Virus record (IMG/VR): IMGVR_UViG_2740892271_000008
Length of the DNA stretch: 4,595 nt
Strand: one strand, 5' to 3'
Source: a virus
Taxonomy: Duplodnaviria; Heunggongvirae; Uroviricota; Caudoviricetes
In this document: positions 1 through 4,595 of the stretch, piece after piece
How the letters are laid out: each line of letters starts with the position of its first letter
Position numbering within the stretch: the stretch's first letter is position 1
Translations under genes and position numbers: made by a program
The notes under the pieces: model-generated
What the model was told of the DNA's origin: nothing
What the model saw: only the letters and a program-made list of their open reading frames with translations
Databases searched by the model: none

Positions 1-41
1 GCTTTGAACTCTTTAGAGTAACGTTGGGTTTTTCTGCTCAT
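1..41 (-). CDS. IS3-family transposase OrfA, N-terminal fragment (continues beyond window start)
   Basis: ATG at 41..39 with AGGAG 6 nt upstream; translation MSRKTQRYSKEFKA resembles the start of the HTH-containing OrfA of IS3-family elements. Confidence 0.65.
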   Translation of the reverse strand, partial: MSRKTQRYSKEFK

Positions 42-105
42 TATTAGCTCCTTCTGATGCCATTCTATTTCAGGAAGGAGTGTCCGTTAAACTCAGGCTA
101 CCTCA
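1..105 (-). mobile_element. Left-flanking IS3-family insertion sequence, terminal ~105 bp (inverted-repeat end plus start of orfA); element body lies beyond the window start
   Basis: Minus strand shows AGGAG, a 6-nt spacer, then ATG at 41..39 encoding MSRKTQRYSKEFKA, a typical IS3-family OrfA N-terminus. Inferred terminal repeat on the minus strand, outer end at 105: TGAGGTAGCCTGAGTTTAACGGACACTCC. It matches the repeat at 4456..4485 at 20 of 29 aligned positions, with identical TGAGGT tip and GGACAC at positions 21-26. The distance from the end to the orfA ATG (64 nt) fits my recollection of IS3. Exact boundary is +/- a few nt. Confidence 0.7.
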
Positions 106-1972: not shown

Positions 1973-2386
1973 ATGAAATTAGCTATCAGGCTTCAATTAC
2001 CGCTGGCATTCGCATCAAAGGAGAGGAGCATGGAAATAAAACCAGAAGATGAGTTAAGCAATATCGTTTTATTTCCGGTAAAAGAGGATGACCCTCGTAA
2101 TCAGGTTAATTTTCTTTATGAGCCATCGGAAAGACCATATTGCCATCACGCCTCTGTACGGGTTGACGAAAAAGAGCGTCAGGTCCGCTGTAAAATCTGC
2201 GGTGCGGTTGTGGAGCCGTTTGACTGGATGCTCTCTGTGGCAAAAAGAGAAACCAGACTGGCAGATGATGTAAGGCTATTGCGCCAGGAGGAACAGGAAA
2301 GGCGGAGAAATATAGAAAAGCTGATACAGATTGAGCGTAACGCGAAAGCGCGGATACGCAGGGCGACAAAATCCAGAACTGAATAA
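1973..2386 (+). CDS. Hypothetical phage protein, putative zinc-ribbon (C-HH ... CxxC) with a basic coiled-coil-like tail; alternative start at ATG 2030
   Basis: ATG 1973 abuts the upstream TGA (1970..1972) with AGGAGG at 1956..1961. A second in-frame ATG at 2030 has a purine-rich Shine-Dalgarno (GGAGAGGAG) 3-4 nt upstream and may be the true start. Motifs PYCHHASVRV and CKICG; C-terminus rich in R/E/K. Confidence 0.65.
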   Translation: MKLAIRLQLPLAFASKERSMEIKPEDELSNIVLFPVKEDDPRNQVNFLYEPSERPYCHHASVRVDEKERQVRCKICGAVVEPFDWMLSVAKRETRLADDVRLLRQEEQERRRNIEKLIQIERNAKARIRRATKSRTE

Positions 2387-2533
2387 TTAAATTTAGCACT
2401 GTTAAAAATTTAATCCTTAACCGGAGGGATTTCTGCACCCTCAAATCATCAGGAGACCACCCGAAAGGGCGGGGAGCAGTCACACATCTGTTTCCGATAG
2501 CCCCGTTCTAATGCTACACTCTTTGATATTTTT

Positions 2534-3220
2534 ATGACCCCAATAAACATATTTATGACAGTTGCTGATTTCAAACGGCCCAAATTGGAGCTCCCAAACG
2601 GGGCAAACAAACTACTACTGCACTCTTGCTGTGCTCCATGTTCCGGTGAGGTGATGGAGGCGCTTCAGGCCTCGGGAATCGACTACACCATCTTTTTCTA
2701 CAACCCGAACATTCATCCTCAGAAAGAGTATTTAATTCGTAAGGATGAGAATATTCGCTTTGCTGAACAACACGGCGTGCCGTTTATTGATGCTGATTAC
2801 GACACAGACAACTGGTTTGAACGAGCCAAAGGAATGGAATGGGAGCCCGAACGAGGGATCCGTTGCACCATGTGTTTTGACATGCGTTTTGAGCGGACAG
2901 CGCTGTACGCCGCTGAAAATGGTTTCAGTGTGATCAGCAGTTCACTGGGCATTTCACGCTGGAAAAATATGCAGCAGGTTAACGACTGTGGGCGGCGAGC
3001 CGTCGCGCATTATCCGGGCATGGTGTACTGGGATTATAACTGGCGCAAGCAGGGCGGCTCGTCCCGTATGATTGAAATCAGCAAGCGCGAAAAATTCTAT
3101 CAGCAGGAATATTGTGGCTGTGTGTATTCTCTGCGCGATACCAATCTACACCGCAAATCTCAGGGACGCCCTCTTATCAAAATTGGTCAACTCCACTACG
3201 GTAAAGAAGAGAAGGAGTGA
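2534..3220 (+). CDS. queH: QueH-type epoxyqueuosine reductase homolog (DUF208 family)
   Basis: 228 aa. Motifs I recognise from the DUF208/QueH family: [11 protein letters not shown] near the N-terminus, [38 protein letters not shown]. Start uncertain (ATG 2534 or 2555; neither has a clear Shine-Dalgarno). Separated from the upstream ORF by 147 nt, suggesting its own transcription unit. Confidence 0.85.
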
Positions 3221-3289
3221 TTTTATGGGGCACCTTTCTGATTGATTTCATATTGGCGAGGTAAGTAGAATGACTGCGGGTGCTTGAGG

Positions 3290-3326
3290 CTATCTGCTTC
3301 AGGCATGAACACCAAAAGGCAGATAG
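3290..3326. repeat. Perfect 8-bp inverted repeat (CTATCTGC / GCAGATAG) with a 21-nt spacer; not followed by a T-run on either strand
   Basis: Directly read: 3290..3297 and 3319..3326 are reverse complements. Confidence 0.5.
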
Positions 3327-3339
3327 AGAAAAGCCCCAG

Positions 3340-3374
3340 TTAACATTACGCGTCCGGCAAGACGCTTAACATTA
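3340..3374. repeat. Direct repeat TTAACATTA (3340..3348 and 3366..3374) flanking a small palindrome GCGTC-N6-GACGC, at the left edge of the N gap
   Basis: Directly read from the sequence. Confidence 0.5.
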
Positions 3375-3381
3375 ATCTGAG

Positions 3382-3626
3382 NNNNNNNNNNNNNNNNNNN
3401 NNNNNNNNNNNNNNNNNNNNNNNNNNNNNNNNNNNNNNNNNNNNNNNNNNNNNNNNNNNNNNNNNNNNNNNNNNNNNNNNNNNNNNNNNNNNNNNNNNNN
3501 NNNNNNNNNNNNNNNNNNNNNNNNNNNNNNNNNNNNNNNNNNNNNNNNNNNNNNNNNNNNNNNNNNNNNNNNNNNNNNNNNNNNNNNNNNNNNNNNNNNN
3601 NNNNNNNNNNNNNNNNNNNNNNNNNN
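3382..3626. other. Run of 245 N: assembly gap or masked sequence; content unknown
   Basis: Directly visible; the ORF-track entries across it (3346..3726, 3372..3659 minus) are artefacts of translating N. Confidence 1.
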
Positions 3627-3648
3627 CATCCTCAACGCACCCGCACTT

Positions 3649-3693
3649 AACCCGCCCATCGCTGTGATCTCTCAGCGTTTCGGCGGGTTTTTT
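3649..3693 (+). terminator. Rho-independent terminator (two-tier GC-rich hairpin followed by a T-run)
   Basis: Outer stem CCCGCC (3651..3656) with GGCGGG (3682..3687); inner stem CGCTG (3660..3664) with CAGCG (3673..3677); 8-nt loop; then TTTTTT (3688..3693) and GTTGTTT. The T-run is on the + strand only. Confidence 0.6.
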
Positions 3694-3713
3694 GTTGTTT
3701 ATTTCCGGTGAAT

Positions 3714-3741
3714 TTGATTCGCGCACCTTCGCAGATAGAAT
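3714..3741 (+). promoter_or_regulatory. Candidate sigma70 promoter for the downstream small ORF and YbcN-like gene
   Basis: TTGATT (3714..3719), 16-nt spacer, TAGAAT (3736..3741); lies just downstream of the terminator and about 80 nt upstream of ATG 3823. Confidence 0.4.
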
Positions 3742-3822
3742 CGACTCACTTAAGTAGCGCGCAGGGAGAAGAGGGATGGACCCCGAACAGGGGAGAGCTA
3801 TTTATCTGGAAGGATTCTGAAG

Positions 3823-4110
3823 ATGAAAATCGAAGAATTGCGTGAAATTTTTAGTGAAAATGGCCTCTATGCTGTGCGCGTTGAGAATGGAGCGATTGTC
3901 AGCCATTGCCGCATTAGATGTTTGCAATCTCAACAAAGGAAGAGCGGTGCTGTGTTATTTTATTTTTGTAATGGACTTCTGACGGACGGTTTTATTTTGC
4001 GTGAGGACGAATTTGTCACATCATTACGGGTTTTGAAAGAGATTGGTTTTAAGGCTGGTTTTCTGCTTTTGCTGAAGAATAAACTCATCTACAATCTTGA
4101 GCAGGATTGA
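3823..4110 (+). CDS. Hypothetical small protein (95 aa), AT-rich; coding status uncertain
   Basis: ATG 3823 with GGAAGGA about 8 nt upstream; stop TGA 4108..4110. About 40% GC by my hand count over the first 180 nt, versus about 57% in a DnaC-like sample. Contains four GGTTTT repeats. No family recognised. Confidence 0.4.
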   Translation: MKIEELREIFSENGLYAVRVENGAIVSHCRIRCLQSQQRKSGAVLFYFCNGLLTDGFILREDEFVTSLRVLKEIGFKAGFLLLLKNKLIYNLEQD

Positions 4111-4455: not shown

Positions 4456-4595
4456 TGAGGTGTACTGGCAATAGCGGACACTACCATTTGTTCTTTTTTT
4501 AAGCAGCCATCTGATGATATTTTTCCCTGAAGGCTGCCGGGGAGATATTCCCCAGACGAGAGTGACGACGCTGACGATTGTAGAAAATCTCAATG
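4456..4595 (-). mobile_element. Right-flanking IS3-family insertion sequence, terminal 140 bp (inverted-repeat end plus orfB 3-prime end); element body lies beyond the window end
   Basis: Plus-strand 4456..4485 TGAGGTGTACTGGCAATAGCGGACACTACC pairs with the inferred repeat at the left edge. The orfB stop lies 43 nt inside the end. Internal GCAATAG-GGACAC resembles the IS3 terminus as I recall it. Confidence 0.75.
4499..4595 (-). CDS. IS3-family transposase OrfB, C-terminal fragment (start beyond window end)
   Basis: Minus-strand frame beginning at 4594 translates IEIFYNRQRRHSRLGNISPAAFREKYHQMAA then stop (TAA, plus-strand 4499..4501). The YN-RRH-LG-SP-F pattern is the conserved C-terminal tail of IS3-family transposases. 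Confidence 0.8.
   Translation of the reverse strand, partial: IEIFYNRQRRHSRLGNISPAAFREKYHQMAA

Follow-up and report, generated by a model that had tools for sequence, protein, structure and literature searches.

The enzyme QueA makes epoxyqueuosine (oQ) at position 34 (oQ34) of tRNA-Asp, -Asn, -His and -Tyr. Escherichia coli has no de novo synthesis of vitamin B12, and we are not aware of a phenotype that distinguishes oQ-tRNA from Q-tRNA. The reduction of oQ to queuosine (Q) is carried out by QueG (b4166 in E. coli), which depends on cobalamin and on two [4Fe-4S] clusters, and in some bacteria QueG is replaced by the non-orthologous and non-homologous QueH (PMC5372724; PMC6461909). According to the title of Frey et al. 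1988, as cited in PMC10639084, E. coli and Salmonella reduce oQ in a cobamide-dependent manner. The QueH family (DUF208, PF02677, COG1636) has a structurally described member from Thermotoga maritima (7LC5).

Lambdoid phages carry morons, of which bor and lom of lambda are examples. Whereas such morons encode surface or virulence factors, the cargo that we describe here is a tRNA-modification enzyme. A further phage system, 7-deazaguanine DNA modification (DpdA together with FolE, QueD, QueE, QueC and others), has its origin in the queuosine/archaeosine pathway, like the gene described here. They rely on genes for preQ0 synthesis and on a DNA transglycosylase, none of which is annotated with queH in the prophage and phage DNA that we examined. 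Among the viruses analysed by Hutinet et al. 2019, none was reported to have a homologue of QueA, QueG or QueH (PMC6884629), and our literature search found no paper on phage- or plasmid-borne queH.

Here we analysed a stretch of prophage DNA of 4,595 nucleotides (IMG/VR record IMGVR_UViG_2740892271_000008), which we call the window. A first-pass annotation had read one of its ORFs as a stand-alone QueH carried as a prophage moron. We consider it likely that this ORF encodes a functional QueH, i.e. a cobalamin-independent Fe-S epoxyqueuosine reductase, which would have been captured together with its promoter and would benefit the lysogen. The gene resembles the described family in its full-length profile match, its six cysteines and its predicted fold, and it differs from it by its location on a temperate phage or prophage beside hok/sok, in hosts with a QueG of their own. 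The window contains the following features:

106–2386, + strand: upstream replication module, context outside the queH unit (Pfam, NCBIfam and PHROG matches; annotation of NZ_CP065613.1)
106–782, + strand: O/YdaU-like gene, a pseudogene here (comparison with NZ_CP065613.1)
789–1535, + strand: DnaC-like ydaV (Pfam, NCBIfam, PHROG)
1550–1972, + strand: DUF977 gene (Pfam, NCBIfam, PHROG)
1973–2386, + strand: zinc-ribbon protein, a conserved phage ORF, PHROG 1621 (PGAP start 2030)
2484–3227, + strand: mobile queH unit of promoter and CDS, ~0.75 kb, with its left mosaic joint at about 2484 (nucleotide homology)
2492–2520, + strand: predicted queH promoter (conserved motif at a fixed spacing, also in several Enterobacter copies with diverged flanks)
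2555–3220, + strand: queH CDS from its likeliest start, 221 aa (Pfam, PDB match, AlphaFold/Foldseek, PGAP, start conservation, dN/dS)
3278–3700, + strand: mok/hok/sok type I toxin–antitoxin locus, its core (3382–3626) given as N (Rfam, Hok models, PGAP)
3823–4110: 95-aa protein, a conserved phage ORF beyond hok/sok, PHROG 340
4107 onwards: NinB-like DUF1367 gene, truncated by an IS

Identity and predicted fold of the queH product

An uninterrupted ORF on the + strand (2534–3220) codes for 228 aa and includes the motif YCGCVYS. The first-pass annotation had recognized QueH hallmark motifs in this ORF, and they are present. The Pfam profile PF02677 (QueH) matches over its positions 1–174 of 175 with 220.6 bits (E 1.9e-65), where the curated cutoff is 23.5 bits; chance would not explain such a match. 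The search of the NCBIfam profiles returned no model for the product; PGAP still names it 'epoxyqueuosine reductase QueH'. The sequences of the T. maritima QueH crystal structures in the PDB match it with an E-value of 5e-22. An AlphaFold2 model that was calculated with 30 homologues as input (pLDDT 79, pTM 0.80) contains the adenine-nucleotide alpha-hydrolase-like core of the QueH fold. When we compared this model to the PDB with Foldseek, the top five matches were all T. maritima QueH entries, with 7lc5 as the best one (E 2e-11, target-normalised TM 0.81). The next matches, far behind, were TtuA, LarE and TilS, which are Fe-S sulfurtransferases of the same superfamily. The product is thus almost certainly a member of the QueH family, and the gene in the window is a genuine, intact copy.

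In the work of Li et al. from 2021, the six cysteines of T. maritima QueH are said to hold a [4Fe-4S] cluster and an adjacent iron. The loss of these conserved ligands would speak against a QueH; all six are in place in the product, and the cysteines of 7lc5 align with C25, C26, C104, C107, C187 and C189 of the 221-aa protein, which keep the pattern CC, CxxC and CxC. The PDB furthermore contains T. maritima QueH mutants of the first cysteine (C9S) and of Asp13 (D13N; Asp13 is the residue mutated in 9dco), which indicates that these are the positions that experimenters consider catalytic. Whereas T. maritima QueH has an aspartate at position 13, the window copy has Cys29 (CCAPC) there, as is the case for most close homologues; the cysteine is found in 120 of the 120 closest homologues and also in the Acinetobacter-like and Staphylococcus aureus copies. 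Judged from these alignments, Cys29 is the common form of the family and not a lesion. A metal-binding side chain would thus be kept at the Asp13 position, where Cys and Asp may be functionally equivalent.

Start codon, promoter and upstream signals

The maximal ORF starts at ATG 2534. This codon is ATT in the plasmid copies of Salmonella and Klebsiella and in the Enterobacter copy, whereas all close homologues in the 5' alignment of prophage, plasmid and chromosomal copies retain ATG 2555, which is also the start chosen by PGAP. We thus rejected ATG 2534, whose codon is not conserved, and the product of 221 aa is likelier; the real start of queH is probably ATG 2555. The upstream gap of 147 nt (2387–2533) that had been reported for this gene holds for the maximal ORF, whereas the gap to the likelier start is 168 nt. 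As had also been reported, there is no Shine-Dalgarno sequence; none was found ahead of ATG 2534 or ATG 2555. The prophage gene differs in this respect from the chromosomal copies of Serratia, Photorhabdus and Erwinia, which have one.

An internal start at Met41 (window 2654) was also rejected, as it would remove the first CC motif. PHROG 3217 (188 positions) and some phage annotations start at this methionine, which is probably an annotation artefact, and the phage-database versions of the protein would then be N-terminally truncated. The Met41 codon is preceded by GGTGAGGTG.

We predict a promoter upstream of queH that consists of a weak -35 element (TTCCGA, 2492–2497), a spacer of 17 nt and an extended -10 element, TGcTACACT, with the TG at 2512–2513 and the hexamer at 2515–2520. 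In the window, the extended -10-like motif TGCTACACT (2512–2520) lies 34 nt upstream of ATG 2555. All 94 loci with at least 90% protein identity, which include prophage, plasmid and chromosomal copies, have TGCTACNNT at a distance of 33–35 nt 5' of the conserved ATG. It is also kept in several Enterobacter copies with otherwise diverged flanks. The motif is our predicted native promoter of queH. A scan for consensus promoters found no site upstream of queH because the -35 element is weak.

No intrinsic terminator was found in 2200–3800, a range that includes the stretch between queH and hok/sok. The Rfam scan of the whole window (E<=1) matched sok only; upstream of queH, it detected neither a riboswitch nor any other RNA family. 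The RNA fold of 2387–2560 is not significantly stable (z-score -1.1), and the only inverted repeat found upstream of queH is AT-rich and 9 nt long (2386–2414). Just 5' of the predicted promoter, a hairpin CCACCC-GAAA-GGGCGG (2457–2472) is present in the window and is perfect in loci L019 and L084. Most other alleles (the loci compared include L083, L087, L085 and L090) have an unrelated hairpin, CTGCTTT-GTGTCA-AAAGCAG, at that position; the stem of this second hairpin differs in sequence in the plasmid and Enterobacter copies but still pairs. A T-run follows neither of the two hairpins.

Prophage context and the N gap

The window is 100% identical to the IMG/VR contig L005. It is 98.8–100% identical, piecewise, to a Shigella flexneri chromosome that has these IS junctions as well, and it shares 99.5% identity with a prophage integrated beside ybhA in E. 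coli FDAARGOS_944. These near-identical genomes assign the window to a lambdoid prophage of E. coli/Shigella, in agreement with the enterobacterial host that had been proposed for it. The FDAARGOS_944 prophage has the gene order int, xis, gam, recE, repressor, cro, ydaT, O/YdaU-like gene, ydaV (DnaC-like), DUF977, zinc-ribbon protein, queH, hokD, a hypothetical gene, DUF1367 (NinB-like), DUF1364, DUF1133, tRNA genes, lysis genes and terminase. Also in the window, queH is located between replication genes and a nin-like region, as first described, with ydaV and DUF977 upstream and DUF1367 (from 4107) downstream. The zinc-ribbon ORF (1973–2386) and the 95-aa ORF (3823–4110) flank the pair of queH and hok/sok. 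The GC content of queH is 0.49 compared to 0.46–0.55 in its neighbours, and its composition is thus not distinct.

Both ends of the window (1–105 and 4456–4595) are the ends of two directly repeated IS3-family elements of 1,266 bp that are 99.8% identical. One element, which has a short target duplication, interrupts the O-like replication gene. The second one truncates the DUF1367/NinB-like gene, and the integrase region beyond it is inverted, which points to an IS-mediated rearrangement. Compared to the intact copy in NZ_CP065613.1, the O-like gene furthermore has A8 instead of A6 at about 327–334 (a +2 frameshift) and a deletion of 10 nt at about 449. The prophage in the window is a decaying, replication-defective lambda-like remnant; its queH, however, does not differ from that of intact prophages.

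Clusters of tRNA genes were found upstream of the lysis genes in intact relatives of this prophage, namely L001 (15423–15733), L083 (10382–10535) and L084 (12833–13082). The anticodons seen among the prophage tRNAs are CAU, UCU, UCG, UGU and UCC. None of these is GUN, so these tRNAs are not Q substrates and the substrate of QueH would be host tRNA.

The N gap downstream of queH had been considered as the possible place of a partner gene of a 7-deazaguanine system. This suggestion did not hold, as the gap contains mok/hok and the rest of sok, as seen in the identical contig L005. The Rfam model of sok (RF01794) matches the window at 3278–3378 with 58.7 bits, where the match is ended by the N gap, and it matches L005 in full with 117 bits. 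The 70-aa Mok/Hok ORF of L005 matches the NCBIfam Hok toxin model, and PGAP annotates hokD at the equivalent position in FDAARGOS_944. The 3' end of the hok mRNA, with a GC hairpin and a T-run as judged from the sequence, is seen in the window at about 3645–3695. The hok/sok locus begins 58 nt past the queH stop codon. The Rfam sok model matches the + strand, which is also the strand of hok, though Sok is described as an antisense RNA. The observation that queH has no companion 7-deazaguanine genes stands: no tgt, dpdA, folE or queCDE is annotated in 25 kb of the near-identical NZ_CP065613.1 prophage or in the 40.2 kb of the complete phage HannyBb that we examined by annotation, and queH stands alone in both.

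Distribution of the mobile queH unit

To delimit the unit, we compared copies of queH from different replicons at the nucleotide level. The homology begins at 2484–2491 when the window is compared to prophages of E. coli 042 and Escherichia albertii, and likewise for an IncFII plasmid of Salmonella, an IncF/IncR plasmid of Klebsiella and the chromosome of Enterobacter hormaechei. In the non-prophage copies, it ends at 3224–3227. The homology to non-phage copies is thus limited to about 2484–3227, which suggests that the movable unit consists of the promoter and the CDS.

Among 5,426 complete E. coli genomes, 995 (~18%) contain the queH CDS, 985 of them near full length, and RefSeq names it 'epoxyqueuosine reductase QueH' in these 995 genomes. 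By comparison, queG (b4166) is present in all 5,426, and the flanking hok/sok sequence in 4,332 (about 80%). In at least 851 E. coli genomes, the sok region directly follows queH. The same order of queH and sok/hok was found in 80 of the 80 IMG/VR prophage loci that we retrieved, in which the upstream and the farther-downstream modules vary. Lambdoid prophages with the pair of queH and hok/sok differ in backbone and integration site, with at least three of each.

Homologues of queH are not confined to the core chromosome but are found in prophages, on IncF plasmids and on chromosomes. On IncF plasmids of Klebsiella and Salmonella (L085 and L087), the queH unit lies alone beside IS3, IS481 and ISNCY transposases; one of the two plasmids is typed as conjugative and the other one as mobilizable, and iron-related genes (a TonB-family protein, fecCE) are nearby. 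In total, 302 plasmids in PLSDB have a QueH match, including plasmids of Bacillus, Ligilactobacillus and Acinetobacter. The Enterobacter unit is found in variable chromosomal neighbourhoods. The plasmid and chromosomal copies are without hok/sok.

The only verified cultured phage with queH is the lambda-like HannyBb, among 25 INPHARED records with a tblastn match. We rejected the two longest 'Bacteriophage sp.' faecal contigs, which look bacterial (argininosuccinate lyase, Asd, an ABC transporter, Tex and CorA lie beside queH), and 'Acinetobacter phage MD-2021a', where soxR, tadA and cynX surround the gene. Staphylococcus and Listeria records with QueH are unverified and unannotated, and no match was obtained when IMG/VR was searched with the S. 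aureus-type QueH. Four INPHARED records (CAKLQH020000001.1, MT835504.1, MT835608.1 and OR844989.1) either look bacterial around queH or are flagged UNVERIFIED; records of this kind would inflate counts of phage-borne QueH.

The reading of queH as a moron is plausible. Like lambdoid morons and auxiliary metabolic genes, queH is inserted between phage modules, with mosaic joints at about 2484 and, in non-prophage copies, at about 3227; it has a promoter-like element that may serve as its own promoter and is absent from many related prophages. It differs from lambdoid morons in that no terminator of its own was found (in 2200–3800) and in that its composition is not distinctive.

Chromosomal relatives and selection

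The closest proteins outside the mobile clade are 79–86% identical to the queH product. In Providencia, Ewingella and Photorhabdus, whose neighbourhoods we inspected, a queH with 80–84% identity is a lone gene among chromosomal housekeeping genes. Copies with 79–86% identity are found on chromosomal contigs of Erwinia, Serratia, Pectobacterium, Proteus, Rahnella and others, and these loci are without the phage genes of the window and without hok/sok. Some 70 further Enterobacterales genomes have copies in the same range of 79–86%. The chromosomal gene, like the window copy, stands alone and codes for about 220 aa. When the queH product is compared to the chromosomal QueH of other Enterobacterales, the identity is 80–84%, with 111 invariant columns. 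The first-pass annotation had stated that enterobacteria normally use QueG; this is true for E. coli (5,426/5,426), but not for the order, in which many members have a chromosomal queH.

We compared 20 distinct prophage alleles of queH to the window allele. None of them contains a stop codon, and dN/dS is 0.02–0.08 at dS up to 0.18. As estimated from these alleles, queH on the mobile element is under strong purifying selection, with dN/dS at about 0.03.

Discussion

Our proposal for the role of the gene is as follows. The host enzymes FolE, QueD, QueE, QueC, QueF, Tgt and QueA would build oQ at position 34 of the tRNAs for Asp, Asn, His and Tyr, and QueH would then reduce the epoxide in a two-electron step, converting oQ to Q. 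The cofactors for this step would be a [4Fe-4S] cluster and a neighbouring iron, bound by the cysteines of the CC...C, CxxC and CxC motifs. A unit of ~0.75 kb, containing queH and its native extended -10 promoter, may have been captured from an Enterobacteriaceae chromosome and, in E. coli/Shigella, would have settled beside hok/sok at the junction of replication and nin genes of lambdoid prophages. For the lysogen, the gain would be that Q formation is no longer tied to imported B12. As queG is present in every complete E. coli genome, a B12-independent backup is a reasonable reading of a second reductase. A B12-independent QueH beside a B12-dependent QueG may be seen as a parallel to the isozyme pair MetE and MetH.

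When comparing QueH to QueG, we find that the two proteins would share the reaction, the tRNAs and the cells, whereas only QueG needs B12 and belongs to the core chromosome. On balance, we favour the interpretation that prophage queH is a self-expressed, B12-independent backup for the conversion of oQ to Q on host tRNA. The data above show the family membership, the conserved ligands, the fold, the purifying selection, the mobility of the unit and the co-occurrence with queG, whereas the activity of the enzyme, the activity of the promoter in the lysogen and the fitness benefit are inferred. There are also points against this explanation, namely the missing Shine-Dalgarno sequence, the missing terminator before hok/sok and the change from Asp13 to Cys29.

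Instead of serving the lysogen, queH might serve the phage, if it were transcribed as part of the early-right operon once the prophage is induced and kept host tRNAs fully Q-modified for the translation of late genes. The gene is on the same strand as the early-right genes, downstream of cro, the O-like gene and ydaV and upstream of the nin and Q antiterminator region. This strand and position make read-through after induction likely, and the cultured phage HannyBb retains the gene. However, the unit of promoter and CDS is also found on IncF plasmids and Enterobacter chromosomes with no surrounding phage, and queH is intact in a remnant that is disrupted by IS elements and defective in replication. 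Furthermore, the hok/sok flank is about four times in five present in E. coli genomes and queH in only 18%, which indicates that queH is dispensable for this phage class. We thus regard a function in the lytic cycle as quite unlikely. It is very unlikely that queH is a neutral passenger that persists only by its linkage to the hok/sok addiction module and by lambdoid recombination hot spots. Such a passenger would be consistent with the mosaic flanks and with the sok/hok that follows queH in every IMG/VR locus retrieved and in hundreds of E. coli genomes, but the low dN/dS and the absence of inactivated alleles (0/20) argue for selection on the protein, and hok/sok is absent beside the plasmid and chromosomal copies.

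The similarity to chromosomal QueH also bears on what the enzyme acts on. We consider a repurposed Fe-S enzyme with another substrate, such as a modified DNA base or a small molecule, highly improbable, as the 80–84% identity and the 111 invariant columns connect the product to the Enterobacterales enzymes and we saw no departure from QueH in sequence or structure. That queH is one part of a larger 7-deazaguanine system for DNA modification or defence, with a partner in the N gap, has a probability close to nil: the gap is occupied by mok/hok/sok, no tgt, dpdA, folE or queCDE is annotated in the NZ_CP065613.1 prophage or in HannyBb, and queH is a lone gene also in its chromosomal homes.

The family with its chemistry and structure has been catalogued before, and this exact protein is annotated in RefSeq, whereas the role of queH as an auxiliary gene seems to be undescribed. 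In the literature that we searched, it is apparently new that a Q-tRNA-specific step is found on temperate phages and conjugative plasmids whose hosts have the B12-dependent isozyme.

Why a backup reductase would be kept on mobile elements can be addressed with a more speculative idea. BtuB, the transporter of B12, additionally serves E colicins and several phages as a receptor. Mobile queH might be kept because B12 limitation or the loss of BtuB is frequent and the step from oQ to Q affects fitness, and a prophage with queH might make it cheaper to shed BtuB. We consider this explanation unlikely; if true, it would link tRNA modification, vitamin supply and resistance to phages and colicins.

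The purifying selection on mobile queH is indirect evidence that completing oQ to Q may matter in nature. If the backup role is confirmed, lysogens with and without queH would be a natural system to study what Q does beyond oQ, and they would also address how the scarcity of B12 shapes E. coli.
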